A stretch of 64,000 nt of DNA, taken from positions 70,556,001 through 70,620,000 of the forward strand of contig CM060731.1 of NCBI GenBank assembly GCA_030704615.1. Reading direction: 5' to 3'. Under the pieces are notes generated by a model. The model was not told the origin of the DNA and made no database searches. It was given only the letters and a program-made list of their open reading frames with translations. The translations under genes and the position numbers were made by a program. Of the stretch, positions 5,197-46,959 are shown piece after piece (position 1 is the stretch's first letter; every line of letters starts with the position of its first letter). The DNA comes from Takakia lepidozioides (Eukaryota > Plantae > Bryophyta).

Positions 5197-5439
5197 GAGG
5201 TAGCTCACAAGACATGGGAGGCCAAGTTCATAGGTGTCAATACCCAAGATCTCAAGCTCAAATTCAAAGGTTGCAAGACGGCGACTAACGATGGGGCAAC
5301 TCTTGTACCCGGCCTCTTGATCTATCGAGTTTGAGTGTAGTAGGGACAGTGGTGGAGGACTTAGTGAGGCTATGGCCACTATCACATCTTGTGGCTACCT
5401 AGACTTAGAGGGACCTAAGCGCCAGCTAGGGAGGCGATT

Positions 5440-5665
5440 GTGATGGACTAGTGGCTGCACTAGTGGTTGTCTAATGGCAGCCTAGTGGTGGACTAGTGGC
5501 TGCACTAGTGGTGGCTAGTGGCAGCCTAGTGGTTGGACTAGTGGCTGCACTAGTGGTGGCTAGTGACAGCCTAGTGGTTGGACTAGTGGCAGCACTAGTG
5601 ATGACTAGTGGTTGTCTAGTGACAGCCTAGTGGTGTACTAGTGGTAGACTAGTGATAGACTAATG
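5440..5665. repeat. CTAGTGG-based minisatellite, copy 1
   Basis: Tandem 10-12-nt subunits (actagtggctgc / ctagtggcagc / ctagtggtgg) in a ~45-nt higher-order unit. Confidence 0.9.
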
Positions 5666-6047
5666 TTTGGTGTGCACATGTGTTGTGTGGTTTTGGACAG
5701 CGATGTAGTTGTGTAGCGATGTGTATGCGCACGATAGTTGTCAAGTTATTTTACCACTAGTGTGAAGTTAGCTAGGAAAAAGCTAGCTTTTATATATTGA
5801 CATTTGGGATTGACCCAAGTGTCAATCCAGGGGCCAATACATGTTTGGGCACCTGGCGTTGTTATCTTCACGGCAGATCGCGGTGGGCTCATCTTTCTCA
5901 AGTTGAGCCTCACCGCGTCTAGCTATGGCGTCGTAGTGTGGATTCCCCATGGCGTGGGGTGCACTTGGCTTGACTTAATATATGAGTGATGTTTTCATGT
6001 GCGAGTTTGAGAGAGCTTGTATGCTTGTATCATTCCTTTCCTTATCA

Positions 6048-6235
6048 TTGTGATGGACTAGTGGCAGTCTAGTGATGGACTAGTGGCTGCACTAGTGGTT
6101 GTCCAGTGGCAGCCTAGTGGTGGACTAGTGGCTGCACTAGTGGTTGTCCAGTGGCAGCCTAGTGGTGGACTAGTGGCTGCACTAGTGGTGGCTAGTGGCA
6201 GCCTAGTGATGGACTAGTAGCTGCACTAGTGGTTC
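6048..6235. repeat. CTAGTGG-based minisatellite, copy 2
   Basis: Same subunits and the same entry sequence (attgtgatggactagtgg) as the 5440 copy. Confidence 0.9.
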
Positions 6236-6549
6236 TTAGGATAATGATTGGATAAATGTATGAAGCCTCGATAGGAGATACATAGGAGATTGCACTTGGA
6301 CTTAGATGACATTGGATACTTGGGCCAACGGCACATGCTACCCTAGATATCGAATTATAGAAATATGAACAATTTTGGTTGCTGGAAATTCAACTAAATT
6401 ACATTGGAGGTCGCACTTGGGCCTCTTATATACATGGGAGACTTGGATACATATTAGGAAATTGTACTTGGTTTTTCGATTTCAATTCTTCACACTTGGG
6501 CCACTGGCACAGGCCCAATGGCACAGGCTACCCTAGTATATATGTATAT

Positions 6550-6760
6550 GACACCAAGTTGTAGCGCAGTGGTAATGGGCACAATATACCACCTCGAAAG
6601 TGGTTGTGGGTTCAATCCACCGATTGATGTCACAAAAGGTGTCCACCTTCCAGCTGGAAGGCAGTAGTCCTTCAGGGTCAAGAAACACCATAATTTACAC
6701 TTCCTTTGGGAGGCATCATATGTATATGTGTGTGTGTGTGTGCGTGCGCGCGCGCGCAAA
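6550..6760 (+). mobile_element. tRNA-derived SINE (family A) with TA/TG microsatellite tail
   Basis: Pol III A box TAGCGCAGTGG (~6562) and B box GGTTCAATCC (~6609), a ~100-nt body, then a (TA)/(TG)n tail. A second copy lies inverted at 6942-7082. Confidence 0.7.
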
Positions 6761-6941
6761 CGCAAATGTCACATCCCTAAAACAATCTCTTTATATTATT
6801 ATTATTATTATTTTCGGGTGCTCTTAAAATCCAAATATATCATAGCTGAAAATCAACTTGTACTGATAACTGGATCGGTAGTCTTACAGACAACTGGGAC
6901 ACTTTTTTGGGACCCTTCTATTGATAACCGACTTAATTATC

Positions 6942-7082
6942 ATATATATATATATGACGCCTCCCGAATGAAGCGTAAATTATGGTGTTTCTTGACCCCG
7001 AAGGGCTATTGTCTTCCAGCATAAAGGGGGTCACCTTTGTTACACCAATCAGTGGATTGAACCCACAACCACTTCCAAGGTG
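6942..7082 (-). mobile_element. 5'-truncated inverted copy of SINE family A
   Basis: Reverse complement matches 6590-6725 (gtggttgtgggttcaatccac..gggtcaagaaacaccataatttac..gggaggc.tcata) and ends in (TA)n. Confidence 0.75.
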
Positions 7083-7084
7083 AC

Positions 7085-7430
7085 TCCCAAACTGGAGAAG
7101 AGCAGAATATATTATCCTCTTTAATATTCAAAAGCATAAGAGAAGGAGAGAAGCACAAATCAGCATACCAGATGGAGTAAAGGGCAAGCGCCTTATCCCA
7201 AACTGCCATCGCAAAAGGGCAAAGCACCAAACAGTGTTCCAAATTTTCAAGCGCGTGAAAATTGCAGGAAATACATTCACCCGGGGAGTCCGAGAACTGA
7301 GCTACAACACGAAGTATCCTATTAGGAACCCTCCAAAGAAAGGCAGATACCTTTGTGGCTCTATGCTTTTTCAAATGTCAACCCAAACAGATTTCCAAGA
7401 AACGGGGTGACCATGGAGGTGATTCCATTT
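7085..7430 (-). mobile_element. LINE ORF2 C-terminal zinc-finger (zf-RVT-like) fragment
   Basis: KVSAFLWRV..CISCNFHALENLEHCLVLCPFAMAVW fits the K...FLW..CxxC..E...H....C....VW pattern of L1-type elements. Confidence 0.75.
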
Positions 7431-7456
7431 TTTCTTTTCTTTTTCAGTTTTAATTT

Positions 7457-7499
<43 letters not shown>

Positions 7500-7784
7500 G
7501 AAAGATAATCAGAATAATATAAGATCTTAACGCACAAGTGCAACCTCTACATATAGGCAGTTACGGCTACAACTTGGAAAACTAGGGTAGCCTGTGCCGT
7601 TGGGCCCAATCTCCTATGTATCCATGTGCATCTCCCTTGTAGAGGCCCAAATGCAACCTCAAGTGTCCAATGTCACCTAAGTCCAAGTGCAATTCCAAAG
7701 CCCACTTTGCTATTTTTCATGAATTTCCAGCGACCAAAAGTACTGAAATTCCACATCTCCCACATTGCAAGTCCAAAGCACATC

Positions 7785-8053
7785 GGCTGGTAGCTCAGTT
7801 GGTAAGTGCATGGTGTGTCGCCCTGGTGATTCGGTGTTCAAACCCGCTGCCCTGTCCGTGTGTGGGATTGTTCGCGACGGTATGTCTGGGCGTTGATCGT
7901 CATGTAGACCTCAGGGCCCATAAATGAAAGGGGGTTAATTTATCCCCCTCCTCAAGAGCCTGAATTGTGGGCTGTCGCTCCCAGGTTCCCTTGATTTTAA
8001 TTATTTAAATTTAAAAAACTAAAAATTATTTAAAAACAATTAACCAAAAAAAG
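7785..8053 (+). mobile_element. tRNA-derived SINE (family B)
   Basis: A box TAGCTCAGTTGG (7791-7802), B box GTTCAAACC (7836-7844), an unrelated body and an A-rich tail. It interrupts the local aagtccaagtgcaa repeat. Confidence 0.7.
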
Positions 8054-10869
8054 AATTGAAATCTAAGTCCAAGTGCAATCCCCTATGTATTCAAGTAGCG
8101 TCTCATATGTCAAGGCCCATGTGTGAAGAATTGAAATCTAAGCCAAGTGCAATTTCTTATGGGAGAATGCTTGCGCGTGAGCCTGTGAGCCTGGCTAGGC
8201 TCACGCCACGTCAGCAAGCATCCACGTGTTCAGGCCCTAATTCCGTGCTTACCCCCCCCCCCCCCCCCCCCTATTACCGCGGATCAGCTGTCGCCTATGT
8301 CCTAATTTTTTATCCCTCTTCATGGCCCCCACATGAATATTCTTTGTGGCCGAGAACAATGGCAGGTTTGCGGATGAATTATGATTGAGGTCATGACTTT
8401 GGAATGAGGAGATCGTCCACTAGAGAACTGAATATTAAAAGCAAACATTTTTTTTGGGCAAAGCAGTACATTCATTCCAACACACAAACATTTTTCAATT
8501 CCGCAATCCGAAGACCTATCCTAGGCAATCCCTAACTGTACTTATGGGAACGCGCAAAGAACTTGAAAAACAGTTTGGAGATGGAAGCAAAACCAAAACA
8601 CAATTTATTGAGCCTCGGTACTTGAACCTAAAGAAATATTGGAGGTTTCAGATGAACCACTTCCATAGTTTACAGCAATATCATCTATGAATACAGCAGC
8701 ACATCCATGACGTTTTTTTTTTCCACAACCTTCATGGAGATGCGAATACAGTGTTTGTTCGAATAACACCCGTGCGCAAGCTTCCGCGTAAACCGGCAAG
8801 CGGTTGGATCTAGGGGGGCTCGGGGACATGTAGTATCCTTGGAAACCGAAAGGTGTCTGCTGATTCGATGACTGGTGCTGAACTCTGCAAAGCAAGAAGA
8901 GGAATGGTGGTAGATGTTAACATCCAGATATAGACAACGGAAGCCACTATCTCTCGAATGGGAACGACACAAGGAAATGCAACATATTTTGAACGACTAC
9001 ACAAGAACTTACTCACACTCAAAATCGGAGTCCACGTCCAGATCCTCGTCAGGCGCTTCGGGCTCCTCCAGAAGTCCCTCTGTGGATGGGGCAGAAGTAG
9101 TGCCCGACTCAAGCTGACGAAGCTCGCTTGAGAAGAGCTCCGTATCAGCTTCCATGCCGAAGAAGTGCCTTCCGGCGCTCTTGCAAGCATGAAAACATGC
9201 TCCTGCAAATCCAAGAAGAACGAGAAATAAAAACAGGGTTTCCCTAAGGTCACTGCCCATATGTCAAACACAATGTGAAGGGCCCCACCTGTGCCCATAG
9301 ACAAGTCAACCACTCGTCCACCATGACGGCTGCATGTCTCCACCAAAGTCTGCATGAAAGCTGGAGATTTCTCCCGTGCACCTCTCCAAGGGACACCAAT
9401 CGACCTTTTCATAGTCCGACCCGAGTCGACGTAATTGAAGATAACATCATCCTCCATAGGCTCACGGGTGGGGTCAATGTGAGCTGCAAGGTCCCTCAAC
9501 TGAAACTCAGCAACACCAGCAGGAAGAGTGTCATTCCGCCTCACCAGGCACAAAGCTTCGAACACCCGTGTCTGTCAATAATCACGAAGAGAGAATGTGA
9601 CAGAAGACATAACCCACCATTTTGATTTACCGAAAAACCACGAAACATCAATTGAAAGGAACCAACTCACTTTCTGCCCCGGGAACTCGCCCTTTGTAAG
9701 AGGCAGAGTATTGATGCATGTCCAAGTTTTGATGACACGAAACCCGGAAGCTTTCATGTAGCTGAAAAGAGTTCTTCGAGCCGACATGTCCTTTGACTGC
9801 ATGAGAAGAAGAGCCCCCGAGTCCGAAAGGAACTTGTTGCTGAACGAGAAAGCCCACTGCCAGTAACGAGAATCCGATTTGTTCCAAGTCGGGGTCGAAT
9901 TGGAAGGAAACACATCAGGGACAGGAAAACCGTCAGGAATGTCCAGCACCACAAGGTCAGTTGCGTATGCCTGCTGAACTCCATTCACCCATTCCGGACT
10001 TTTTGTGACCTACAGCCAAAAACATGAGACAGTGTAAGAAGCCCAATCCAAATCTAACAGGAGATCAATCCCCTGGACAAGCCACAACAAGCTGCCAAAA
10101 CACAATTATTCATACAACAGTTTAGACATAAGTGTTCACCTGAGTGAGGAACGAAACAAGCATGTCCCATGATTTCGAGGGCACCCCTTTGAATGTGGAC
10201 TTCCTGGACTCCATCATTGCAAGAAAACTTTCATTCAGCACCTTACGATTGAACTGGCCCAAAACCCTGGAGGGATGTTCTCTCGCCTCGAAAACTTGCT
10301 CCCTCGACTTTGATGTTCTCCTATCCCTCCTTGCGGGAGAAGGCTGTCTTTCAGGAACCTCTGACGGTCCCTGTCCTTGCGGAGCTGCACTTTTCCCCTT
10401 CCCCTTCGGATCCCCGACAATCTTCCCCTTTCGTTTTGGAGTAGCAGTTTTCTCGGGCTCTTTTGCAGCCAGAGCCGAAATGATTTTGTCCTGGATGTCT
10501 TTGTCAGCCAATGGGGCAATCGCTGCGGCATTGTCGTTCAGGTTTCTCAAAACAACTTCATCGAATGGAGTGTCCTGTTTTGGCAGGTCGAGGTACCACC
10601 CACAGTCTCGGAAGTGCACCCTGCTCCAGTCTTTGGCAATACCAGCCGTGTACATTGTCTTGTCATTGGAGGGGTCAGCCCATGAATAGATGAAGTCTGG
10701 GTCATCGCTAAGGTACTTTCCCGGTATGAGGATATGATACATATACCTGAATCACACACAAAAAACCCAGACAGTCATTCGATCAGAAAACGAAAAAGAA
10801 CACACATCCGGAAAAAGATATTGAAATGCAGGAAGGCAACACTGAGAATTCTACTTTTGAAATCCCGAA

Positions 10870-11495
10870 TCAACCTTGCGTTGACGCAATGTTCATTCGA
10901 GCAGAAATGGGGAACACCAAATGATAATGTTGTATTGATAGAGACAACGACTAAGAAGCGCAATTCAACATTGCTTCAACGCAAGGTTGTTTTCATTCAG
11001 AGAGGAAATGGAAAACACTGCCTGAAAACTACCATCTGACTATGTACTGGTGCGGATATTCAACATTGCGTTGGCGCAATGTTGAAATCCTCTGTTGAAA
11101 CACATGTCAATGCTATCTGATAATCATAAGTTTCCTACAATTGTATTGAAATCGGGGGATGGCTGCGGGAAATTTCCAGCAATCCATACCGCCAAACAAC
11201 CTTGCGTCAACGCAAGTCTGTTTGTTGGTACAGTGAAAGTTGTAAATAACATTTCAAACCGACTCCAAACACTCTTATGTTCATCTTGGCAGCATTGGAA
11301 CTGGATTTGAACTACCCAAAACCACAGGAAAAGCTACATAGCCTGCCAACTTCATCAACCTTGCGTTGACGCAAGGCTGATTTTCCTGTCAGTTTATCCC
11401 CTTTCACATTCAGAAAAACGGCATTATGGGATACCCAGGTATAGGTAAGTGAAACCAGGACAATGGGAAACAACCTTGCGTTAACGCAATGTTGC
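10870..11495. repeat. Six dispersed 26-bp palindromes TCAACCTTGCG-TTGA-CGCAAGGTTGA in the 879-nt intron
   Basis: Copies start at ~10870, 10965, 11060, 11196, 11355 and 11470. Confidence 0.9.
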
Positions 11496-13375
11496 TCGAC
11501 TGCACATGCAGAGCCCTCAGAGATCTCGCAAAGCACTGCAAATTCGCAATTCTTTATGGAAAGAACGACACAAGATTGCAGAAACATGCCCTTCAAGCAC
11601 CAATTTTGATTCAAGGAGGTCACACCTGTACAACACTCGCTTCATTGCTTGCTCGCTGTTGTACTGGTTTTTGAATTCGTAAGACCTGGAGATTCCTTTC
11701 TCTTTCTCAAACTCCCTGAAGAAGCAGTTGTTCCAGACAGCGAGCTTCCATCTCCTGATATAGGCCTCCAGTGTGATCCGGGGGCAAGCCATCTGGATTT
11801 TGTAGTCTGCCATCGACTCAGCAAGTGCAGCCACTGCACGTTTTTCTAACTGCAACAAGAAAGCTCATAAGAATTTGGGAGAGGTTACGGAGCAACACAA
11901 ATGTCTGAAAATGGTTTGGTTCAAACCTTACCTAGCTCCAGAATGTGGCTTTGTGTAGCCACTGGTCGAATGTGTGGTCGCTAACAACTCTTATTGCTTG
12001 TGTCTTCGGGTCCCTCTCTGGAGTTGGGAACATGTTCGTGTCTCTCACAAGAGGATCCGAATTCCATATCTCCAACCACCTGATTTTGGTTGCATTGTCC
12101 ACCATTGAAATGGAAAGGCGATGTAGTTTCTCTTGAGTCATTTCTGGCTTGGAGCCATACTTGTCATAGTGTGCTTTCACCTGCTCCAGAAATTCCGTGC
12201 CAAGACCTGGGTCTGCTATCCGGATCTGTTTGTCGAATGCACTCATGAGGTTCTTCCTTTGATTTTTCATCTCGAACTTCATCATGTCCTCAAGCCCAGT
12301 TGCAGACCGCTGCTCTTCTGTGTGGGAATCATAGTACTCTGCTTTCGCCTTCAATCCAGTTTCTGCTATTTCTTGCTGCATACATAACAGGTAAAAAGAA
12401 TCAAACACTGGAATTTCTTCACAAAATTTGCAGTAACAACAGGCAAACAGGTGTCAAAAAGCTTACAGTGTACATGTACTCAAGAAAAGCCTCCCTTGTC
12501 AAGCTGTACCATGTGCTTGTCTTCTTCTCAGCACACCTCTTCATCTGCTGAGGACTGAGCACGTTCGTGAATGACTCCAGTGGCATCAGCCCTACCTTCT
12601 GGATGCGGAATAGAGTGTGGCACAGATTGGTCGTCACATGAGATGTTTCATTGGACCTGGAAAAACCTTCAACTCATAAGATGATTTCAAATTGTCGAAA
12701 CAAGGAACAGACACAAAGTTGGAAACTTACTTGTTTATGTCGTGCATGGCTGTCAAGAGCTGCGTGACACGTCCTTTGTGATCGAGAACCATGGAAACCA
12801 CGCTCCAGTGCCATTCGATGTCGTCCGAGTGCAAGCTTGAAATGTAATCCATCCAGGCAAGCAGTCTGTGGTTCCCATCCCAGACAAAAAACATCTTTCC
12901 CATGAATGCTTTTGTGGAGGCCTTTTTGGACAGCTTAAACTCGAACTCCCTGTTTACATCCCGCCAGCATGCATCCCAACCTTGCTCAATGTCCTCTGTT
13001 ACAAGACACTCCTCTCCTTTCGTGTTCATAGTGGATACGTAGAACACTGCTGATCCCTTGACATAGCCGTGAACAAAGTCGTTCTTCAACTTCGTTATAT
13101 CATTCCTCAATGCCGTCGAACAGCGGGCATGGAGATCATCCTGCACAGCGGAATGACCAGGTTTCCGCCGGGAACCTCCATCGACAGAATCACCTTCGAC
13201 GAGTTCACTTTTTGCCCACCAATTATCTCCTCGGCCTTGTCTTCATAGTTTCCCTCCAATGAGTCTTCCTCACCTTCACCTTCTGACGCGGCCAAATCTT
13301 CCCCCTCGGATTTCCTTTTTCTTTTCCTCTGCACAGAATGAATTATCTGTGAGTGACAGATTGAGCACCCATGGA

Positions 13376-13889
13376 TCAACATTGCTTTGACGCAAGGTTG
13401 ATTGATGGGGATGTAGTTTAGACTGAAAGGCATACAGGAAAGACTTTTGAAGCAAAAAAATGCTTTGCGTTGACGCAGGGTTCTTTTGGGAGCTTCAACT
13501 AATCAACTTTCCCTACCTTACAGTTCAGGGTATGAGAGATCGGACGCTCCATTGAACAAAAAAATCATCAAAACCAGCCTTGCGTCAACGCAATGTTGAT
13601 TCTTGTGCGGCATCTGTTCGTTTCACTAGAAGTTCTAACATACACCATGGAGGTTGGCATCAACCTTGCGTTGACGCAAGGTTGATTGCGAGCTCTCGGA
13701 TCGGTGTTGAACAAACACAAAAGCTACAGGAAAAGGAGATTGCTGTCTCTTCTTCTTCTTCGAACTTGATGATGCGTCGCAAGCATCCATGTCTGTCTAG
13801 CTTGATTGTAGTGCAACATCTGCACTGTTTTGATGCCCAATATATACACTTAGGAGGTCGACTTCAACCTTGCGTTGACGCAAGGTTGA
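13376..13889. repeat. Five copies of the same 26-bp palindrome in the 627-nt intron
   Basis: Copies start at ~13376, 13460, 13574, 13660 (perfect) and 13864 (perfect). Confidence 0.9.
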
Positions 13890-15080
13890 TGTCGACCTCA
13901 ATGCTTAGCAAGAACCAGACAGAATCAGAGAGAGAGAAAGAGAGTTCATAGCCACCTCTGGTTTCTTCTTTGCACTTGATGATGCTCCTGACGCATTCAA
14001 TCTTTCCATTTGGTCTGGAGGTAGCATGCTTCCAAGGAGGTCCCAATGGTGCGAAACAAGGGCAGACGGCATCGTTTCCGCGTCCGTTTGTTCTCCCTGC
14101 TCTTTGAAGACCTGTTTCTCTACTCGCAGTGCTTTCTCCCGAGCCCAGCTCACTTCCTCGTCCTCCCCCCCTTCTATTGGAGGTTGCTCATCGGTCGCCT
14201 CCGGGATCACTTCAAGACCTTCCTCTCCACACTGCGGTTGCAGAATCTTGTTTTGCCCTTCGTCTTCCTCTACGCCGGATGTTTCTTCTCCCATTCTAAG
14301 TTCCCGTCTCGCCTTCCTCATCCTCTCCTTAGCGCGTGCCCTTTGCTTGTTTGATGTGAAATAAAGTGTTCTTCGACGCTTGCTTCTCCCTCGGAATGGG
14401 GTCACCGTCTCTGCAGAATCCAGGGTTGCAAAGACAATAAGGAGAAGAGGGAAAAAAGAGGACTATGGGAGGTTCATCGCAAGGCCTTCAACGCCAAGAT
14501 GTTCGCTCGCAACGTTCAGTGCGCCACTGACTCATTCCACATGCATGGCGAACACGTGTCCATCTAATCGTTATGAAATATCGGCGGAGATCATTGGATC
14601 CTCATCCATCCAAAAATCGTTGGGGTCTAATCACCTCTCATCTGAAAAAGTTCATTATTGGGCAATTTATTCTGGGATGTTCCAGAGGAATGTCAAGTAT
14701 GTACAGTTGTACAGCGGTGCAGGTGCCGTTAAAATTAAATGGAAATGGGCATCTCTTCTGGCCTCTCTGACATGACAACCAAACGGCGGCTCTGTCAGTC
14801 AATCTGTCAACGAATGCACTGGTGGGGCACTTGTGAAAAAACAGTTGGATTCTAGGATTAGGGCTGACATTATGGACTCCGCATTTGGGAACTCTGTGAC
14901 CATGCGCTTGGTTCGCATGGGGAGACATTTCACAGAAGTGGAAACCCGCGTTAGGAGATCTGCAAGCCGGAGCGATACCTGCAATTCTCTGTGAGGACGC
15001 CAAAAACTCCGCTCCCACACAATTTGCATTCACAAGCACCGTCGGACTGTGAACTCTACTTTCTGAAGCAACATCGACAT

Positions 15081-18000
15081 ATGGCCTCCCAGGCCATGGG
15101 CTCCCTTGACGCGGACTTCTTCAGTGAGGACCACCCTGTGCCATTTTCTTACGAGGTGGAAGATGATGGTTTTGCGCTGGTGCATGAACACGTCCTCGCA
15201 ACGCAGTTTCGGTTGGAAAATGGAACTCTATTCCTTCAAAGGGAAGTGTACGATGCCAATGGAAAACTGCTCAAGTACGTGTTCCAGAAACCTTCGCATA
15301 CTGCACCAGCCACACAATGGAGAGTGCCTCCAGGCAGATACAGGGTGCTCAGTGCTCCTCTGAGACAGTCTGCAGGATCTTTCGTAACTCCTGGCACGGC
15401 AACATCAGTGGCCCAGGAGAAAACACCCGTGGTTGTCAAGAAGGAGACGAGTACCGTTAACACTGTAGTTGAGCTTTCGGACTCATCCTCTGATGACACA
15501 TGTGCAATACCGCCCGTGGATCAGCCATGTCCACATGTAGAAGCAGATGTGGAGGAGATCACCAGTGTCATTCCTAAACTGAAAGCCATGGGTGGGATGG
15601 CAGGATTCAAGAGTGAGTTGAGGGGGATAGACTGGAGCACTTTCAATATTCAGAGGGTGGCATTCTTGCTGGAATCTTTTGATGGTAATACTGTTTTCGA
15701 GCTGCCTCCTCCTGGTCGCTTGGGGGGCAATTCTAGTCTCCTGGAAGGAATGGACAAAAAGCACGATGGGCACCCTTGGTGCCGCACAAAAACCTCCAAT
15801 ATTCACAACAACGACAACCTCATATTCAGGCGAACAGTCTGTAATGGGCACCTAAAATGCGAGAACATGAAATGCAGACACTTCGCATTGTCAGGTGTGC
15901 AAAACCAAAGCGAATGGGATGGTGTCAGTGAGAATCCATTCAAGCCTGGGGTGACACCACCATACAGTAACACTTTTGTGTGCAAGTTCTGTAGGGTACC
16001 ACCTTGCTGCCTTGCTTTGTGTGGCGCCAGAATGTATTATGTGGTGCATCGATTCAAAACCCTGACTAGAGCCTGTGTCCATTTCGGTTTTCACAACCAC
16101 CCTGTGTCCAAGGGGGATTATAGGGAGAGCGTTGACACAGTCTCGCGTCTGATAAGGCAAGAGTTGGATACCAATCCAACTGGAACCACATCTGCAATTG
16201 CCATGGGGGCGAGCAAGTCCTTTCTGGAAAGCCGTATTCTGTGTGCATCAAATTCGGTTGGAGGAATACTGGAGGGATCGGCTTTGGACACTGTTATGGA
16301 CCATTTCTCAACTTTGACTTCTCCAAACATTAGGAATCAGGTGAACGCTTTAAGAATGGGCTCTGGGAGCCGAGGTTATATGGACAATATTATGGATTTG
16401 AAGAAAATGAGCATGTATGACTACATCCAAGACAACGTTTTCCCGGGACAAAGAGCCAGGAAAGTGTTCTTGTTCAAAATGTCCACAAAAGGTGAGGGCA
16501 GCGGGGTCAGCCTGGTTAAACGTATGCAGAAGGGTGGCGATCTTGGCAACTGCTTCCTTATGTTCGATCATGTCAAGAGGGTTAAAGACTGGACCACAAT
16601 GGCATGTCATGTTTACGACCCTGTGTACCAGCGGGTCATGACAATTGCAGTGTGTGACATGCAGTCAGAGGACACAGATTCACAACAGCTCATGTGGGAA
16701 GCTCTCATTCGAGTTATGACCTCCAATGGTCTCCCATCTCCCAATTTCGTTGGTTTCATGGCCGATAGTGCTCAAGCTAACTTCAACGCTGTCCGCATTG
16801 TGTTCGGGACGGGAGACCCAAAAGTGCCAATGCCTGGAAGAGAACGTACATGTCTTTTCCATTGGACACAATCCTTGGACAAACACACAAAGACATACAT
16901 CAAGCCAGATATGCAGACTATGCATCGCCAACTGTGCAACCAGTACAAAGACGCCAAAACTATGGGGGAAGCGAATACATTGTTCCAGACAATTCGTGCT
17001 TGGTGGTACTCATCTGGAGCGGCATCGGAGGATAGCATGAGGGCACTGCAAGACTGGTTCGCATTTTGGCACTTCCGTTACCGACAGTGGGGAGCGGCCA
17101 TGACAACGGTGAGTGGTTTGTATTCACCTTCGTTTGGGTGCTTCGGATATATCTTTCAGGGTCCAATCCTAATATCGGCTTTCTGTTTTTTTGCCTTGCA
17201 GCATATGTCCATTGAGGAGATGGCGGACATGCCTTCTTGCAATCTTGCGGAGACAGTGCACAATGCCTGGTTGCAGCAATCCGGCAAAAAAAGGAGAGAT
17301 TTGTATGCGGCGACGGCCGATGACCTCATTCGTGCTCTGCAGCAGCAAACCAGATATAGGTCATTCTTGAGGGGTGGCCTTGGTGGCAAAGGTCCGGACA
17401 GGAGCGAGTTGATGTTGCGGGCAGCTGGAAGATCAGGGGATCCCAGCAAAATAGCGCGGGCAGTGAGCATATGTGCAGATGGCACCCCTCTCGTGGAAAG
17501 AGTTCCCCATCTGGAAGGCGAAGAGAGATTCGGGTCTTGCAAACGGAAATTGGACACCCCTCCGGGATCGGATGCAGATTCCCATAGGGCGGACAGGGTG
17601 AACTTCTCGACGCCACGTGTTCCCTTGGATCAGAGATGGAATTGCGGAACATCCACATGTGAGGGCTACTCTGCCCCAGACCGGACCCCTGCATCAAGCA
17701 TTGTCACTGCAATGGTTGAAGACCAGAACGTGGTGCCGCATATAATCGAGTCCATGGGCTTGGACGAGGTTTGGCATATAGAACGCACAAGTGCTGGATC
17801 TCGTGTGAAATGCGCGGCGATCAGGGCCACCAATCATGAAAAATGTACATCAATAATCTCCAGAGGGAAAGAACGCACTGCAGCTCCTACATTCACGGGT
17901 TTGTTTCTCCCTTACGGACAAGGCGAGGCAAAGAACCACAAGTTCTGGTTCTGCGCTGACGATTGTGGGAGATGTGTGCATGGTACAGTGAGGCCTTCCG

Positions 18001-18584
18001 TGGTAAGGAAGCCTACTCCACCAACCGTGTGGCCTGTGAAGATGGGCACAGGTCTCACTCACCGAGAGATCGCAATGCTGGAAGAGGCGGGTTTCTCCCT
18101 AGCCAGACATTCCATTGCACGTGAAGGTGCTTCAAGTGGAAGCGGTTCACGGGTACCTCCGCCTGACGCTCACTTGTGGCCAACCAGACGGAATGGGAAG
18201 CTGGTTCGACGATTCCCTCCAACTGCAGAACACTACGGCAAAATTGAGTCCGCCAGAATGCTTCACGCTCGTGTTGCGGGAACAATGGAAGTGCCTAATC
18301 CAGGGTATGGTCGGGTCTTCACCATGATCTCATCCGCATCTGCGCTGCAGGACGGGACGTACGAAATCACTGTTTCCAATTTTCCCAATTGTACATGTCC
18401 TGATTTTGTTGGTATGCTTTCAAGTAGTTTGGGAAAGAGAGGGAAGTTCATACCGTGCAAACACCTTTACTTCGTCTTCTTGAGAAGGATGGTTTGTGAT
18501 CCAAAGCGCGACTTCTTCATTCACCAAGCCACTATGAGTTTCAACGAAGTCAACACACTTCTACAGCGGGATACAAGCCCATAA
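15081..18584 (+). CDS. MULE-family DDE transposase with N-terminal WRKY/GCM1-like Zn domain and C-terminal SWIM finger; one 93-nt in-frame intron (17109-17201)
   Basis: Uninterrupted 1197-codon ORF, first ATG at 15081. DGHPW..CNGHLKC..C..CKFC..C..HFGFHNHP (WRKY-GCM1 fold); FLMFD, FMADSAQAN, CLFHW (CxxH), CNLAETVH (DDE); CTCPDF..PCKHLYFV (SWIM). ACG/gtgagt...ttgcag/CAT removes a hydrophobic 31-aa insert. Confidence 0.88.
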   Translation: MASQAMGSLDADFFSEDHPVPFSYEVEDDGFALVHEHVLATQFRLENGTLFLQREVYDANGKLLKYVFQKPSHTAPATQWRVPPGRYRVLSAPLRQSAGSFVTPGTATSVAQEKTPVVVKKETSTVNTVVELSDSSSDDTCAIPPVDQPCPHVEADVEEITSVIPKLKAMGGMAGFKSELRGIDWSTFNIQRVAFLLESFDGNTVFELPPPGRLGGNSSLLEGMDKKHDGHPWCRTKTSNIHNNDNLIFRRTVCNGHLKCENMKCRHFALSGVQNQSEWDGVSENPFKPGVTPPYSNTFVCKFCRVPPCCLALCGARMYYVVHRFKTLTRACVHFGFHNHPVSKGDYRESVDTVSRLIRQELDTNPTGTTSAIAMGASKSFLESRILCASNSVGGILEGSALDTVMDHFSTLTSPNIRNQVNALRMGSGSRGYMDNIMDLKKMSMYDYIQDNVFPGQRARKVFLFKMSTKGEGSGVSLVKRMQKGGDLGNCFLMFDHVKRVKDWTTMACHVYDPVYQRVMTIAVCDMQSEDTDSQQLMWEALIRVMTSNGLPSPNFVGFMADSAQANFNAVRIVFGTGDPKVPMPGRERTCLFHWTQSLDKHTKTYIKPDMQTMHRQLCNQYKDAKTMGEANTLFQTIRAWWYSSGAASEDSMRALQDWFAFWHFRYRQWGAAMTTVSGLYSPSFGCFGYIFQGPILISAFCFFALQHMSIEEMADMPSCNLAETVHNAWLQQSGKKRRDLYAATADDLIRALQQQTRYRSFLRGGLGGKGPDRSELMLRAAGRSGDPSKIARAVSICADGTPLVERVPHLEGEERFGSCKRKLDTPPGSDADSHRADRVNFSTPRVPLDQRWNCGTSTCEGYSAPDRTPASSIVTAMVEDQNVVPHIIESMGLDEVWHIERTSAGSRVKCAAIRATNHEKCTSIISRGKERTAAPTFTGLFLPYGQGEAKNHKFWFCADDCGRCVHGTVRPSVVRKPTPPTVWPVKMGTGLTHREIAMLEEAGFSLARHSIAREGASSGSGSRVPPPDAHLWPTRRNGKLVRRFPPTAEHYGKIESARMLHARVAGTMEVPNPGYGRVFTMISSASALQDGTYEITVSNFPNCTCPDFVGMLSSSLGKRGKFIPCKHLYFVFLRRMVCDPKRDFFIHQATMSFNEVNTLLQRDTSP

Positions 18585-18871
18585 AAATCTGTGTTTTCCT
18601 TGACTACAACTTGTAATGGAATGACTATTCAAGTCCATTGACTCTCAATGTATGTCGTCTAACATCTTTGCTATGCGTGGGTCAATGCATTTGTCGCATT
18701 GGTTTGTCATTCTCTTTTCATTAGCAAACACAAGAAACTACCTTCAGATAGACAGATGATCAAATCAACCTCGTCTCAACTTACTTGAAGTTCTCCAAAT
18801 CCTCCTTGTGTTGACACAAGGATGATTTTAGTTCTCAGAAAACAACATCGTGTCAACACGAACTTCAACGT

Positions 18872-20685: not shown

Positions 20686-21584
20686 TGTAACACCCAGGAT
20701 CTACATAAACTAGAATAGAAGTACTTCTCAACTTTTTCCCAAAACAACTCGATGCCTTATAGGCTTTCATTGCATGTTTATATACCCTTTACAATATGAT
20801 TATTTTAAAGATTTGACTTGAGAGCCTCAAGTCAAAATCTCCTAAAGTCAACCTTCCTAAGTTTGACATATTCTCTATAATATAACTTTATCAAACATTT
20901 GACCTACTCTCCATAATATAAATATCTTATAGATTTGACTTAAGAGCCTCAAGTCAAACTTCCTTAAGTCAAACTTCTTAGGAACCTTCCTAGTTATTTT
21001 GAAAACTTCTAGGGAACTTTCCTCCTCCATCTAAAACCTTCTAGATTTTGCCCTGTTACAATCATCCCCTCTCTCAAGAAGCAACGTCTTCGTTGTTCGA
21101 ATTTTCAAAAGTTTGAATTGCCAATTGAGCATTTGCGAGATTTTGCACCGGTTCCCAAGTAGTTTCATATAATGGAAATCCTTTCCATAAAACCAAATAC
21201 TCCAACACCTCATGTCGCCCTCGTTTATATGTGCGTTTTTTCAAAACACGGTCGACCTCCCACTCTTCATTTCCGTCTATCAACTTTGATAAAGGATGTG
21301 GTTCTTGATTATTTTTTAATATTGATGGTCGAGGTTCGTAACGACGTAGTAGAGAAAGGTGAAACATCAGGTGGATCTTCATATGTGGTGGTAACTTCAG
21401 CTTGTATACTACTGCTCCAATACGTTTAATGATTGAAAAATGACCAATGAACCGTGCCCCTACTTTTCGCGATCCAATGATGTGTAAATTGGCTGTAGCC
21501 AACCACACTTGATCCCCAACTGCAAACTCCTCATCCCGTCGATATACATTTGCATACTGCTTTTGGCGATTTTGGGCTGTGGTG
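20686..21584 (-). mobile_element. Chromovirus 3' end: integrase tail with chromodomain, PPT and 375-bp LTR (20686-21060)
   Basis: FAVGDQVWL..ARFIGHF..VYKLKLP..IHLMFHLSLL (GPY/F module); EEWEVDRVL..YLVLWKGFPLYETTWEP..L (chromodomain); PPT gagagaggggatgat; LTR ends tgtaaca...tgttaca. Confidence 0.9.
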
Positions 21585-22870
21585 TGAAAGAAAGGGGCAA
21601 AACATTTCCCCACGATATTCACTTCAAATCACCAGAGTACCATTCCGTTCCACCCATGCCGCTGCGGAAGAGAAAACATAGGTAGGACACACATCCGTCA
21701 CAGATAAACAACTGCCTTGCATGTGATCTCGCATGCTGCAAACACCCAACATAGCCTTTATAGATTCCCCCCTGAAGGATGGGCCTTGCCCGTGAAGAGC
21801 AGTCACCCTTTTATATTCATGGTACCCCCGTCAGATGGCCTGATCGAACTACCCGAGCCTACCCGGCATCCGCTCATTTTCTCTCACTCCTTCTCATCTT
21901 TTACCTCTCGAGTCCAAGGGTCAGATCCAAATACACTCGTCAGTTACGCACGAGCTGTGGGTTTGACTGACCTTATGGAAACAATCAACAATGCTGCCAC
22001 TTTACAGATGCACCCTAATATTCCATCAATGCAATGTGGAGTTTCCCCACTAGGTGGTTTGAGTGATGCACTACCTACAAGCCCTGATTTCCCAGCTATT
22101 GCACCCACACCTTTTACATGCTCAAACTGACCATAGCTGCAATCAGACTTCCCTCATGCACCAATGCAAGAACTAATGCATCATGCAAGAGCGATTTCAG
22201 ACTAAAAAACCAAGCAATGACCCAAGCAATGACCCAAACAGTCGATTTTTACTTCTTCATCAGCATAATCCTTCATCTACACAAAATAACGAGTGTGGAG
22301 CTTAAAGCCCAAGTCTCTGGTTCACGTCACCATCAACATCTCCACTTCTCTACCTCATTGCCTCCTGTCTCACTATTCTCTGCCCAAAAGTAAGAAGAGC
22401 CACCTTCTCACCAAAAACTGCCTTAAAACCCAAACCCCACTTGCCTGTGCAATTATTACACCTACAGCTCCTATAGTCGACCATATCAACTAGCTCTATC
22501 CAGAAAACTAACTCAGCCGCTATTGCAGAATACTGACTAAAGAGCAGGAAAGTAAATTGCAATAAAAAACTAAGGCATGTAGACTGATGTTTGCTCCAGA
22601 ATACAAAGTGTCAGGAGCTTGCCGTACCCATGCTTGTGTGCTTGCATGAAAAACGCCGTCACTCATCAATCCCGCCGATCTAGGGCACATGGATGTTTGG
22701 CGGATGGATGTCTTCATCCAATGAGTCATAATTCATCCATCACTATTATTCATCCAACTACTTAATTGTTGTAAAATCTTAAGTACTTAGCCCATCGAGT
22801 AGCTGCAAAAATAACCACATATTCACACTACATATGTGGTGTGGCTCACTTTTTTTAAGTGACAGCGTCC
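21585..22870 (-). repeat. 3' LTR (~1.3 kb) of the RT-less element
   Basis: Ends ...ctttCA at 21585. Inner boundary uncertain (TG at 22864 or 22889, after purine-rich tracts). Confidence 0.7.
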
Positions 22871-25800
22871 GCGTTGTCCCTTTCCTCCATGGGTGTTCCT
22901 CCTTTGCGGTGAAGAGCAAGATCCCTCCTGCTTCTTGTCCAAGTCTTCCCCGCCCCATCCTTCAGTGTGCATCTGCGCTCGGCCTCCATGCCTTTGGGCT
23001 GATTTTCATGATCCTTGTATCCCACAAAGGTGTACGGTCCTTCCCAGGGACTGGTCATGGCACCTTTCCTGGTCTTAGCATCATGATCAGTGATCCTGCT
23101 TCCAGCACAGCATATTCATGGCCCGTCTTCTGCCTCCTCTCATAGTCCCTGGCCTGCTGTCTTTGTCCCATTTTAACATTAGCCTTGAGCTGCGCATCTA
23201 GTTCAGCCAAGAACTTTACTTTGTCTTGTAGCTGCTGAGCAATTGCTGCCGGAGAATCATCTGTATTCACCACTTGGGTGAGATCTTGTAACCTATTATC
23301 CACACCCAACCTTGGCACTCGCCCTGTCAACACCTGAAATGGTGAAAATCGTGTGGTAGATTGTCTTGACATCTGGTAGCCCAAGAGAGCCCTGTATAAA
23401 TTTTGGTCCCACTCGGCATCCCCAAGCACTCCCAGTGCTGTGATGCTTTGCTTCAAGGTCTTGATGATCCTCTCGACCATCCCATTGCATTGGGGCCAGT
23501 ACGGTGCGCTGTGTTCGCGTCTGATCCCAAATCTGTCACATACTTTGGCAAACTCACCTCCCCACTCAGATCCATTATCAGAAAGAATGACCACAGGACA
23601 CCCATATCTGCTAATTATCTCAAGAATCTGGCCGTTAGAGCTGCAGAATGACCTGACACTGGGCATGCCTCCACCCACTTGGAATAGTGGTCAATGGCCA
23701 CCAATACATATTTGTTTCCTCTTTTGGTGACTGGAAAAGGGCCTGCCGTGTCAATGGCTATTCGGTAGAACAGATCAACAATGGGAATGCTATTAAGTCT
23801 GGATGATCCTGAACGTACCAAGCCCTTGTGATTGGCACTCTGACACTCTGGACATTTCAGCAGCATGCTGCGGATCAGCTGGGTTCGGTTGTGCCAGAAG
23901 TATCTCCTGCAAATCTCCTCTTGTGTTTTTCGCACTCCCAAATGCCCAATTATGGTGTGCAGATCCAGAATTATCGCTTGGCGGTTTGCTTTTGGTGGCA
24001 CGAGCTTGCCCTCATAGAAGACTTCCCCTTTTGCGTAGGAGTATTGCCTGGCCCGGCGTACAGCTCGTGCTTTCTCCTCCCGGCTCAAGTAGTCATTTGG
24101 CTCACCAAATGCAAGTATATGCATGCATTCGATGTCGTCAAGTATGTCAGGCTGTACTTCCTCCCGATGTGTGCACATTTCCTCCTCATCACTGCACACT
24201 GTGGCACCTTCTCCTAGCTGCTCAGCTTCCAAAAGTAAGCTTACTTGTTCCTTTTTGGTGGGAGTCACCCACATTCTTCTACCCTTTGACCAAAAAAGCT
24301 CATCATTCATGGTTCTGGTATAGGGTCCTTCATCCAGGTTGCTCCGCCAGTGAGCTCTGTCATCCATGATGCTGGCAGGAGACCTTGCTTGAGAGCCCGG
24401 GCCCATGCTGCAGCCTTCTTCTCTTGGCTGTCTTGCCTGGTCTTTATGGCTGCTGCCACTGCTGGAGGCTTTTGAGAGAGAGGTACTCACTCCCGGCACT
24501 GTACACTTGCTGGTGTCATCTCCCTGTGCGGTGGCGCTATGCAGCTCTTCCAATCGCTGCTTCCCCTTTCTCGTCTGCACCACATTAATTGTGGGCAACA
24601 TGCTGGGCCCCCAATCACTTAATGGCCTCCCCTTCTGTTCTCTCTGCTTCCCACACTCTGCGCTCATTGCTGATTCAGAATTAGCCTCATATCTTGTGGG
24701 TGACACTGAACAGGTGCGCATGCGTTCAGTCCCTTACACTGGCTGTAGAAGCTGCATACTTGCAAGCCCCTCCGTGCTCCATTCCTTGGTTCCGGGTTGT
24801 CACACACTGAATCACCTATACTGATTGGTATGGCTCCCATGCCAGCTGATTCAGACAAATACGCAACAGGCTTTCCCCGATCTGTCATGTTTTCATTGGG
24901 GACAATGTCAGTTGTGCACCTCCCAACATTGCTGTCCCCTGGAGCCTGTACTGACAACAGAATGCCCTTCATAGCTACAACAGGCTGCATGGCCATCTTG
25001 CATTCATCAGCCTGCGTTGCATTCGTTTCTGTACTCTGGCCACCCTCCATCTCATGAATTACACCATGCAGGAGGGGCACCATGTTCCACACATCCTCTT
25101 CATCATTCAAATCGTCTAGATCAAATTGTTTGGCCAGGTTGTGGCCTTCATCAGACCGGCCCACCACTGTTGGCAGCGTCTCGATCATCCTACCAGCAGC
25201 TGGCGGCTTGGCACACCCTTTGCCTGTCTCTGTTGCATTCTGTTCTACAGTCGTCATGTTGATGGTGGGCATGGCACCGCCCCACTCTTCCCTGGTGGAT
25301 TGTGCATACACCATTGGCCACCTGCCATAATGCTTGGGCTCCATAGCTGCCTTTGCTTCATCACATTTTCTTGCCTCCTCCTGATCCAGTGCAGGCTGCC
25401 TTACATCCATCGTGTGGCCAGAGTGTAGGCCACTGCTACAGCTTCTCCAGGTGACAAATGCAGCTACCCTTGGCTGCTCGTGGTGGGTTTCATGTTCGAC
25501 AGATGCCCTTTCCCCACCAATGGCTGTTGCCTCCCCTACACGTGGTGCAGTGCTCACCTTCCTGCACTTAAGATTTCCTGCCAGATAGTCTTCACACACA
25601 GCTTTCTCACATTCACTCACTAAACTGACATTTTGCAACACTTCTTTGTCATCCAAACTCACTCTTTTCATCTCATTTAGGGCTGTTCCCCCAAGGGTGC
25701 CCATCTTTCTCAAGCCTTCCTTAACAGTGACGCCCTCCTCAAGGTGCCTCTCCCTCAAGCTGGTTTCTACAAATTCAAACACAAAATCCTCCAGCACGTT

Positions 25801-28535
25801 CTTGCCCTTATGGTGCCCTGACCAGAGCCACCTGTACGGGTCCAGATCAGTTAGCACATAGAAATGTTGCCCCTCCAGTTGTTCCCTAAAGTACCCAAAT
25901 GCCCATACGCTCCTCTGATACTCTTCTCTCTTAAAAGCGAGACTGCATGGGTCTAATTTATACAACACCTCTCTGGAAACTTGAGACTCAGCCTTTTACC
26001 TTTCTCCCCACACCAATACAATCTAGCATGGGCATACCCTAGAGAGATCACTATCTGAAGAAGAAAGAAACCCTCGGAGTTCTCCCTTTCCTTGTCCCTG
26101 TCCATCATTGTACTGTTGGTTCTTATTTGCTCGGCGCTTGCAGCACATGGGCACTTCTGCTTGTGTGCAGCCTTCCAGACCTCGGCATAACATTCACCTT
26201 CACAGGGTTTACACATGGGCTGTCTATCCGATGAGGCCTTACTCATAGCCACCAACACTGGCTCATGACCTCGAGTTTCTTGGCAAAACAGGGCTCCTTC
26301 CATCTGTTGCAGATCCGTTTCTGTGTTTCCCAGGCCTTCATGCTCAAAAGTGCCTATGCTGGTATTGAGTTCCATTGCACCTACCTGATGGCAAGAAACG
26401 TTTCTACCCTTGGCCTTTCCTCCACTCAATCACCTCCATAACCTGGCAATGCCCTTCAGCTTGCTTTGTATTCCACTGGCACCCTTCCCTTTTCTTGACT
26501 GGCTTGTGGTCCCCGTTTGTGTGTGTAGGTTTTTCAGTAAGTTGATTGTTCCCAACTTCTTCTTCTCTTCATGCAATTCTTTACACGTTCCCCAGCTCCC
26601 TTGGGAGTGTCTAGATTGTGACATCTCCGTTCCATGTTTTTGCCATTCAGCTGGCTTCCGGACGGCCTGCTCCCTGGCTTTGACATATCTGATCGTCCCT
26701 TCCTGTTCTTTGACTTGCTCAGCACCGCATTGCAGCATTGAAACTCCAGAGACAGCTTCCAGGTTTGGTGGTGCGTACTCACTGGCTTCTGGGGCTTCGC
26801 CCCTTTTTGTGATGGCTGCACTGACCCCTTGAGGGCTGCCCAGGTGAGTCTCTGATTCCCTCAGTTGTAGTGTCGTGCTGCGCCCATGGTTAGCAAGCAA
26901 TTCGCACTCATAATTAACCATCGCCATCAGCTGCTGCCTTAGCTCCATCTTCTCCTTGTCAGAGTTCATGGCTGCCACCTCGAACTCTTGTATCCACCTT
27001 TTCTTCAGACCATGTGTGGCATTGCACCGTTGCACATCAGTTTCAGGTTCCTCTTCACGCAGACTAACATGATCCTCTTTGACACCCAGAGCCACTTCCT
27101 TTTGCTGATACAAGGTTCGCGGAGGGTCACCAGTCAACTGGTCGACTGGCATCGTCCTCCCATCCTCCACATCTCCACCTTTCCCAGAGCTAGAGAGAGC
27201 CTCACATCTCTCATCGCCACTGTTAAAGTGTTGTGTCTCTTCCTTGCTATAATGTCCCGTCTCAGCTACAGGGCGTGATGTCAGTGAATCATCTTCACAA
27301 GCAATCCTCAACTCATTGGCATCTTGCTCTTCCAATGTAGCAGTTATGCAGGCCAACATGTGATCTTCATCATCACAAAACACCTCATCAAAACGAGCTG
27401 CTTCACCAACCACAGCAGATACTGCCCTAACATGCAAAGTGGAAAGCAGATTGCTGATTGCCAACGGAGCGTTATGGCTTCCTTCTTCTTTCTGAACCAG
27501 CTTTACTACAGCTGCTGCTGGCTGCCCATCAGTGTAGACCTCCTTAGATGCCATGATTCCCGGCTTCCATACCTGATTTGGTGAGCCATCCAGCTCGCCT
27601 TTGTCCCTGTTGGGATCTGATAGCTTCATCCTTCCACCAAGAACATTTTGATCTCCTTCTTTTGAACCTTTCAGCGGCTGCCTCCATGCCATCTCCTCGT
27701 GAGGGTTTGATATAGCAGCAGCAAACTTCTCCTCGTTCGTGCCACCGAACTTCTTCAAAAGCCCAGCTGGTAATTCATAGCAGTTTGATGGTCGTGGCTG
27801 TTGCATTCTGTACCAGGCATCAGCCTTCCCAAACAAATTTAGTCTCGCCACCTTGGGCAGCTTATCTTTACTTATCTTTGCCTCATCCATGGCCCTTTGC
27901 ACTCTTGCAAACCATTCCACCACATCTTCGGATTGAGTGCCAAAAAAAGGGACACCCACCCCAGCGGGGCCGATGGTACCTTGCATGGTGCTTGTTTCGA
28001 GCATATTTTTGCTCACAGTACTCCCTTCACTTGTGATTCCCAGTGCCTCCTGTGTTTCGTAAAGGCTCCTCGTGAATGCCAATTTTTGCTTGAACAAATC
28101 TCTCCTCCAGTTAGCGTCTCTCCCTCATGCACCACTTCAGCGGGTACCGGTCTTCTCAGGATGTCTGAGCCTTAGCCAATTACTTCTTCACGTCCAGCTT
28201 TTCATTCAACAATTTTAATGCCTCCTTCTTTGTGGAGTTGCACTTGCCGCTGTCTAAGGGCTTGTTGTGGAAAGCCTGGCCCGTGGAAGATTCTCGGATG
28301 CGCACTATTTGGACTCTCCCTTCTCAGCCGGTGTTCCCTTCTGAACCTGGATTACTTGAAGACCCAACCTGTAGAGTTTCTTGTTCACAGCTAAAGATCC
28401 AACATCCTACAAGTTGCTTCGTTATTACAAGTAGGTCAAATCAACACGATCCGGGCTATGTATTCACACATGCACAAAGCAATCTGTCACAAAGGAACTC
28501 AACAGAGCCAGAGAATGACATCAGCTCTGATGCCA

Positions 28536-37041: not shown

Positions 37042-37664
37042 TGTATAAACCTTTGCCCACTACAGGGTCCAAAACCTCAGAAAACGACAATGAACGCGTG
37101 TGGATGGTGTCTTCGTAGTTTTATGCAAAAAAACAGGCCGCCGGAGATCCGAAAACGGCAAAATGGTGATACGATGATTGAACCGTGAACAAGTATGTGG
37201 GATTGACCAATAGAAAAACCGACAAACCCCCCCCAAAAAAATAATCACCTTTGCACCTCCCGTTGGCAGTGCCAAGCAACGAAGTCCGAAAGGACTACAT
37301 GATGCCAAGGAACCGCACCACAAGAGGGGCAAAAATGATTAGAAAAGGAGGGGGGAATGGTTTATATAGACGCCCACCAGCAACCCCCCCCCCAAAAAAA
37401 AAAATGGCATTATGCTTGAAAAGGCGCGACAGGCCAGTGGCGCCTCACCACGTGTCAGCGCGGCACGACTGCCCAGTCGCACCTCGCCACGTGCATCCAC
37501 ATGGGAGAGGTCAAGGGTTCAAAACCACCTCCCCCCATCCCATTCGTTTCGTTTTTCCTGATCCGTGGCATCTCGCCACGTGGCTGGCCAGGCGCCGCTT
37601 CATGATTAAAAAATTAAATACAAAACGCCACACGGCGGGTCCCTGGATTTCTAAGAAAAAAAAA

Positions 37665-46904: not shown

Positions 46905-46959
46905 CACAGAACACAGACCTGAATAGTAAGGTGACCAGTTATAATGTGAAGCCTGAAGG

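Follow-up and report, generated by a model that had tools for sequence, protein, structure and literature searches.

A palindrome-bearing Mutator-like element of Takakia lepidozioides carries a gene joining a predicted ParB/Srx-fold domain to a methyltransferase fold

We analysed a 64,000-nucleotide stretch of the Takakia lepidozioides genome (GCA_030704615.1, contig CM060731.1, positions 70,556,001 to 70,620,000), referred to here as the window. It contains a copy of a Mutator-like element of ~11 kb in which a nine-exon accessory gene, on the minus strand, lies head-to-head with the transposase. The features of the element, in window coordinates, are as follows.

8161..18867, unstranded: Mutator-like DNA transposon, ~11 kb in full siblings; the window copy lacks the right end
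14955..18584, plus strand: transposase ORF, 1,209 aa from stop to stop, with a GCM-like Cys/His region, a DDE-like core and a SWIM finger
13956..14321, minus strand: accessory-gene exon 1, acidic, with KKKPE at its end; start codon inferred; gene model, no joint seen in RNA
12731..13328, minus strand: exon 2, with an RKRKRK basic patch and the predicted ParB/Srx-fold domain
13116-13118 (R), 12865-12879 (DGNHR) and 12733-12744 (HDIN), minus strand: landmarks of exon 2; 1-nt deletion near 13115 in the window copy
12467..12656, minus strand: exon 3, helical continuation past the ParB core; family profile match at E 9e-23
11932..12375, minus strand: exon 4, conserved middle region; premature TAG at its end in the window copy
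11626..11849, minus strand: exon 5, middle region; gene model
10140..10746, minus strand: exon 6, last part of the middle region and a basic linker; gene model
9671..10009, minus strand: exon 7, first half of a beta-class N6/N4 methyltransferase fold, with motif IV DIPD at 9929-9943; a homologue matches PF01555
9289..9571, minus strand: exon 8, continues the methyltransferase fold as far as the SAM-binding motif (EKSPAF...VVDLSMGT)
9009..9202, minus strand: exon 9, end of the SAM-binding region and stop; gene model
10871..11493, unstranded: six ~22-bp palindromes of AACCTTGCGT-YR-ACGCAAGGTT type, in intron 5
13377..13887, unstranded: five palindromes of the same AACCTTGCGT-YR-ACGCAAGGTT family, in intron 1
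18801..18865, unstranded: variants of the palindrome, located downstream of the transposase and extending further in full siblings

A search of the genome with an exon gave at least 150 matches (150 scored among 3,406 candidates), with identities from 99% to 58%. Near siblings align across window positions 8160-18867 and extend further. Both ends were found in five of 12 siblings, 10.9-11.4 kb apart, and all five of these have target duplications of 9-10 bp, within the 8-11 bp described for MULEs (PMC6446971). Siblings with both ends showed no long terminal inverted repeat (TIR), only a short imperfect terminal inversion. The transposase ORF has an above-cut-off Pfam match to the SWIM finger (PF04434) and none to the MULE transposase model (PF10551); the GCM-like and D/D/CxxH/E motifs were assigned by eye. 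Among 92 projected copies including the window's, the ParB exon was covered in 88, the methylase exons in 71 and the transposase core in 55, as counted within the fetched stretches of copies that had been selected by their ParB exon. The accessory gene is a fixed part of the Mutator-like element, and the sequence-only reading of this DNA, which had placed a ParB/Srx-like domain in a eukaryotic transposon protein, was right about its location.

Just left of the element, at 6280-8140, lie nested inverted repeats with arms at 6590-6732/6941-7082 and 6278-6537/7574-8141, which are probably MITE-like elements, and at 5420-6240 units of 11/45 bp with an ACTAGT core are repeated in tandem. Degenerate Ty3/gypsy retrotransposon ORFs occupy 21074-28124 and 44554-52300, one of them with an SH3 and chromodomain integrase tail. 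A different palindrome, of CGACCGCCA-N-TGGCGGTCG type and at up to 19 per 10 kb, forms two arrays that face each other (30350-32000 and 37430-38200) and flank a RING-finger ORF (33633-34349) and a kinase-like-domain ORF (35771-36247); no ParB-like match was found between them, and this repeat is likely a different, cargo-carrying transposon. A third palindrome array, of GGAAATGCGG-NN-CCGCATTTCC type with a ~53-bp period, adjoins a truncated sibling copy at about 11900-13200 of the joined stretch L021/L022. Palindrome arrays seem common among this genome's repeats.

Joined across eight GT-AG introns, the nine exons form an open frame of 1,081 aa in one of ten mappable siblings (12 tried), the copy at G000:C4:7467003-7483002, and in a second sibling the frame of exons 2-9 is open. 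In the gene model of the intact sibling, the ParB exon is joined to an amino-methyltransferase fold in a single reading frame, the order being the ParB-like domain (encoded in exon 2), a helical middle and the N6/N4-methyltransferase fold. A Ceratodon moss protein of 1,147 aa has the same fusion, being 51% identical over the ParB part and ending in PF01555; the intact sibling and this protein both bear out the methyltransferase fusion claimed in the sequence-only reading. Exon 4 is 32% identical to the Ceratodon protein over 146 aa, and exon 8 is 56% identical to its methyltransferase over 32 aa. KKKPE closes exon 1 (13956) and RKRKRK opens exon 2 (13328), both in phase 0, at a predicted junction. 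Splicing was followed in related copies only, in two contig sets that we presume to be RNA, their status being a guess. The joint 9201/9288, with GT-AG ends, occurs in both presumed RNA runs and the joint 10007/10138, also with GT-AG ends, in one presumed RNA contig, and across the exon 4/5 intron one related-copy contig has ~82 nt less. No contig piece bridging the ParB and methylase exons was found in these two sets, and no RNA dataset containing the window stretch was listed. Within intron 1, positions 13730-13800 duplicate, with divergence, the last part of exon 1 (13956-14000); this 37-nt repeat at 78% encodes a similar Ser/Lys patch and is a possible alternative or dead exon.

The window copy itself is broken. 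Of the peptides that had been quoted for the domain, all present on the minus strand, IPLCRMISMPAVR lies in an ORF at 13107-13502, and LRNDITKLKNDFVHGY, FFVWDGNHRLLAW and LLTAMHDIN lie in another at 12727-13242; they are split over two frames, and the dots that had joined them hid a frameshift, so that the pseudogene state was missed. The interval proposed at the same time, 12467..13170, takes in exon 3 and most of exon 2, with the ParB core in exon 2. The window is one base short near 13115. All 12 inspected siblings have this base, reading AVRPALRND, and read IPLCRMISMPAVRPALRND without interruption, and 86 of the 88 siblings with exon 2 coverage have the base. Exon 4 closes with TAG in the window against CAG in most siblings, a stop common to four siblings. 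The 1-nt deletion, the premature TAG and the absent right end of the element together make the window copy a pseudogene, though the deletion may be an assembly error, and single-base indels are frequent in siblings too.

An AlphaFold2 model of exon 2 of the intact sibling, built with 91 sequences, reached a pLDDT of 94.1. Compared with 48,161 solved chains, this model matched 14 at Z>=2, and all eight at Z>=5 are ParB/Srx-fold proteins. The best were KorB (Z 7.7, rmsd 2.6, 90 aligned), PadC (7.6), pNOB8 ParB (6.4), SerK (6.3) and sulfiredoxin (6.2), with Noc and ParB also among the top matches. Foldseek, the search suggested by the sequence-only reading, placed 34 of the 36 PDB rows listed in the ParB/Srx superfamily, including Atu1540 and 1vk1, which we take to have this fold; none of these rows reached E<=0.001, and all Z scores were below 8. 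A viral structure library likewise returned ParB-like proteins. In the model, G112-N-H-R115 follows a strand (107-111) and opens a helix (113-126). Because the lists agree despite modest scores, and GNHR opens the helix after the strand, we consider the assignment of the modelled domain to the ParB/Srx fold secure. The R...DGNHR...N motif is conserved in the homologues compared (91 in all): R31 in 73/83, G112 in 84/91, N113 in 91/91, H114 in 86/91, R115 in 79/91 and N159 in 78/83. Neither of the outcomes named beforehand as speaking against the domain, a fold other than ParB/Srx or an unconserved DGNHR, was found. The family also has a helical insertion of ~30 aa before the GNHR strand. The shorter pattern GxxRxxA occurs 17 times in the window's six frames, not above chance, and DGxHRxxA once. 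What carries the assignment is conservation in the 91 homologues, the predicted fold and purifying selection. By sequence, nothing significant for a ParB assignment was found in Pfam or among PDB sequences: none of 91 members matched PF02195 (ParB_N) at E<=0.1, the genome gave no PF02195 match, and the related models DndB (2/91 members) and DUF1015 (1/91) stayed below cut-off. A homodimer prediction with ATP/Mg, run without an alignment, scored 0.44, and one control scored 0.54.

Atlas likened the ParB exon to fungal DUF3723 (0.93; middle region 0.76), a conserved cargo gene of Starship transposons. This lead was unconfirmed, and the Starship paper makes no mention of ParB. Should DUF3723 prove ParB-like as well, the same module may be at work in fungal giant transposons.

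To the family profile, 1,249 cluster representatives match at E<=0.001, and those with names include proteins of Riccia and Adiantum. Searches of phages, GTDB genomes and IMG/VR gave no close prokaryotic or viral relative, and a methylase search for shorter proteins gave 13 matches, none named prokaryotic. Phage and orphan fusions of ParB and N6N4 methyltransferases are the likely source of the design. Selection was estimated between five sublineages from 68 of 76 long copies, in ten non-independent pairs. dN/dS was 0.04-0.15 for the ParB domain, 0.05-0.10 for exons 3-5, 0-0.27 for the methylase, 0.11-0.23 for the transposase and 0.26-0.42 for exon 1. As judged from these coding sequences, the ParB/Srx domain mattered to transposing copies.

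The methylase-like domain has the motif order of the beta class (IV before I) and a conserved SAM-binding segment. Pfam gave no match on the window exons alone; the Ceratodon homologue matched PF01555 above cut-off (E 5e-07), and Atlas scored the likeness to N6/N4 methylases at 0.97. The catalytic motif of beta-class N6A/N4C enzymes is (D/N/S)PP(Y/F/W). None of the 75 readable copies has the aromatic fourth residue of motif IV, which reads DIPD in 66 and a close variant in nine; distant subfamilies also have DIPD. Relatives have DTPF, DQPY, DQPF, DVPF, DIPW, DLPT or DMPS, those of Riccia having DLPT/DMPS. Since the SAM-binding motif is kept but motif IV is DIPD, the methylase fold probably serves to bind or flip DNA, methylating it weakly or not at all. 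Conservation combined with an atypical motif may indicate, for this lineage, a role in binding or a changed chemistry; methylase activity there is, from the motifs, doubtful.

The AACCTTGCGT-YR-ACGCAAGGTT pattern was found at 776 places in the genome, versus 0 for the control. Between sublineages the palindromes diverge by 1-7%, versus 6-28% for the rest of the same introns. Two subfamilies with ~60% protein identity have different palindromes at the same positions, and another palindrome is present in a further neighbouring copy. Thus protein and palindromes are both conserved between sublineages, and each distant subfamily has a palindrome of its own; gene conversion or hairpin repair could add to the conservation of the palindromes. 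A more divergent copy of the ParB gene (~50% identity) with its own palindrome lies beside a subfamily-B copy in locus L048 (G000:C1:35682274-35690273). Among 48 metagenome loci of at least 6 kb (from 80 fetched, many of them redundant), 19 had a downstream methylase match, four a related transposase on the opposite strand and 11 a family of at least four palindromes; the comparison with 25 shuffled loci gave at most three.

Among CpG sites, rare transitions had hit 31 of 40 in the palindromes and 110 of 183 elsewhere in non-coding sequence, compared with ~0.1 per A/T site. CG decay showed no fall near the palindromes and no trend by distance. We considered and rejected a shielding of palindrome CpGs from 5mC decay, their transitions being as frequent as at other non-coding CpGs, and likewise an origin of the TG/CA palindrome centre in ongoing CpG decay, the centres being fixed per site with CG seen once. 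Judged by CpG decay, the methylation of inserted copies looks normal, and since these decay like ordinary methylated transposons, any protection is probably short-lived.

Taking these results together, we tentatively favour a proposal to which, as a whole, we give a little less than an even chance: the ParB/Srx-fold accessory protein would be a nucleotide-regulated self-recognition factor of the transposon. It would bind the family-specific palindromes in the introns and ends of its own element, probably as a dimer. A nucleotide held in the ParB pocket by R...GNHR...N, with ATP as likely as CTP, would control this recognition, which in turn may favour the expression or transposition of the element itself, an anti-silencing or transposition-promoting effect like that of VANC on VANDAL.

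It is also conceivable, though we think it unlikely, that the protein works as an N6-adenine or N4-cytosine methylase, marking the element that encodes it, with the ParB domain as a regulatory nucleotide-binding module, as in phage fusions. The PF01555 match of the moss homologue and the Atlas score of 0.97 speak for this, as do the conserved SAM motif, the low dN/dS (0-0.27) and D-x-P-Y/F/W in some relatives. ParB-N6N4 methyltransferase fusions are common in phages, and a bacterial SAM-methyltransferase fusion binds ATP (bioRxiv 2025.10.10.680097). However, the motif IV aromatic is absent from 75/75 readable copies and from distant subfamilies, and Riccia has DLPT/DMPS.

Rather unlikely is a reading in which the palindromes are sites of the transposase, bound by its GCM-like region and replacing the missing long TIRs, while the ParB-methylase protein helps by another route. 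Consistent with it, there is no long TIR, some palindromes are found past the transposase, close to the right end, and a neighbouring repeat has larger palindrome arrays with no ParB gene detected. Subfamily-specific sites fit either protein, because transposase and accessory gene diverge together. However, of the 13 sites in the window, two introns of the accessory gene contain 11, at 2.7-8 kb from the ends, and the element ends carry a different motif. ParB genes also lie beside inverted-repeat arrays in unrelated red-algal transposons (bioRxiv 10.1101/2025.02.11.637652), which argues further against transposase sites.

The sequence-only reading, noting that in ParB this domain binds CTP and forms a sliding clamp, had inferred a ParB-like nuclear switch that could let the fused methyltransferase load at specific sites and spread. 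Nucleosomes would hinder such sliding. In ParB, Box I (ELxxSIxxxGxxxP) reads the cytosine and Box II is GERRxRA (PMC10653881), and in M. xanthus ParB Q52 and E93 are catalytic and R54, G92, E93 and N127 touch the gamma-phosphate (bioRxiv 2021.05.05.442810). We mapped Boxes I-III onto the family by topology rather than superposition. On this mapping, Box I reads L..(E/D)F..GY, with D/E replacing Ser and Pro absent; the GERR Glu position is N in 91/91; the residue two before R31, equivalent to the catalytic Gln, is variable; and the acidic Box III residue before Asn is replaced by I (41), V (16) or L (14) among 83. The equivalents of the R, G and N that contact the gamma-phosphate are kept. In VirB, Box III shows this Glu-to-Ile replacement too, yet CTP is bound (PMC10653881), so CTP binding may occur here as well. 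Of 28 purified orphan ParB folds, 11 bound NTP and 17 did not, with binders of ATP, CTP and GTP among them and, in the available text of that survey, no rule predicting the ligand (bioRxiv 2025.10.10.680097). Pfam found no helix-turn-helix (HTH) or other DNA-binding fold in the ~490-aa middle of full-length homologues, where the sequence-only reading had suggested looking, and Atlas gave weak leads only; no C-terminal dimer domain was found either. A single-sequence model of the 1,147-aa moss protein had a pLDDT of 35 and was discarded. Neither CTP specificity nor a sliding clamp is supported, given the apparent replacement of ParB's CTPase residues and a search that turned up no HTH. Nucleotide binding itself is likely, and CTP specificity and sliding are less likely than that.

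We therefore hold it improbable that a CTP-gated sliding clamp loads at the palindromes as ParB does at parS and spreads the fused methyltransferase. Such a clamp, or more broadly a nucleotide-gated one, loading at subfamily-unique parS-like palindromes and spreading the methylase fold along the 11-kb element so as to mark or shield it, would be in keeping with KorB, PadC, Noc and ParB being among the top fold matches, with the retained gamma-phosphate contacts, with palindromic sites under constraint and with CTP binding by VirB (PMC10653881). Against it stand the replaced Box I Ser/Pro, GERR Glu, catalytic Gln and Box III Glu (topology mapping), the lack of a detected HTH or C-terminal dimer domain, and the nearly equal scores of the non-clamp proteins sulfiredoxin, SerK and SbnI. 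Of the earlier claim, candidate loading sites are thus at hand in the constrained palindromes, but the sliding clamp that would spread from them is unsupported. If true, it would mean that bacterial ParB-parS logic had been reused for eukaryotic self/non-self epigenetics in the plant nucleus. Finally, that the gene is a captured, functionless passenger, as the broken window copy and most siblings and the lack of a listed RNA holder of the stretch might suggest, is scarcely credible: it is contradicted by selection, with dN/dS of the ParB exon (0.04-0.15) at or below that of the transposase (0.11-0.23), motifs are kept across moss, liverwort and fern homologues, and the introns are conserved and spliced in related copies (presumed RNA contigs).

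The architecture of ParB plus methylase on a transposon is not new, and the land-plant Mutator version is a variant of published algal designs; we found no description of it in the literature searched. The Ectocarpus element Sola1-1_Ec32 has a gene for a 1,104-aa protein with a ParB-like domain and an N4C/N6A methylase opposite its transposase; such proteins have been proposed to bind their own element and to modify it, and there are earlier green and red algal reports (PMC12477816). The likeness, as compared by description, extends to the length of ~1,100 aa, the pair of domains and the strand opposite the transposase, whereas Sola1-1_Ec32 is from a brown alga and of the Sola superfamily and ours is Mutator-like and from a land plant; palindromes go unmentioned in the available text (0 occurrences of the term; PMC12477816). 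Red-algal Plavaka PAG2/PAG3 genes share a transposon ParB-like domain, present in PAG3, and adjoining inverted-repeat arrays, but there the fusion partner of ParB is a 2OG-oxygenase, and a distinct gene, which has a SET domain, encodes the methylase; PAG genes also occur on Chondrus Mutator elements, and the comparison with VANDAL has already been drawn for them (bioRxiv 10.1101/2025.02.11.637652). Arabidopsis VANDAL elements are likewise MULEs with short or absent TIRs, an accessory gene and family-specific motifs in introns and non-coding DNA, but the VANC protein, which binds motifs in introns and other non-coding parts of VANDAL, is unrelated, its motifs are 9 bp long and not palindromic, and its hypomethylation effect is proven (PMC5735166), and inserted copies here show no visible CpG protection. 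With the canonical ParB/Noc/KorB clamps the domain shares the predicted fold, the GxxR phosphate motif, the upstream R, the downstream N and palindromic candidate sites; it differs in the replaced Box I, catalytic Gln/Glu and Box III Glu, in the ~30-aa insertion and in an identity of 10-14%, and no ParA partner was found. Phage and orphan ParB-N6N4 methyltransferase fusions have the same two domains in the same order, whereas the plant transposon gene has introns and ~490 aa between them; 'plant' and 'transpos' are absent from the available text of the orphan-ParB survey (bioRxiv 10.1101/2025.10.10.680097).

What is new here is the confirmation of the fold, the failed membership among CTPases, and the selection data on protein and palindromes. 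Several subfamilies each have their own protein and their own constrained palindrome, which makes cognate versus non-cognate binding directly testable, and a nucleotide-regulated, sequence-specific plant chromatin factor could serve targeted expression. A second system, unrelated to VANC and present across mosses, liverworts, ferns and algae, would make self-recognition an old and general transposon strategy, one that would be built from prokaryotic parts.
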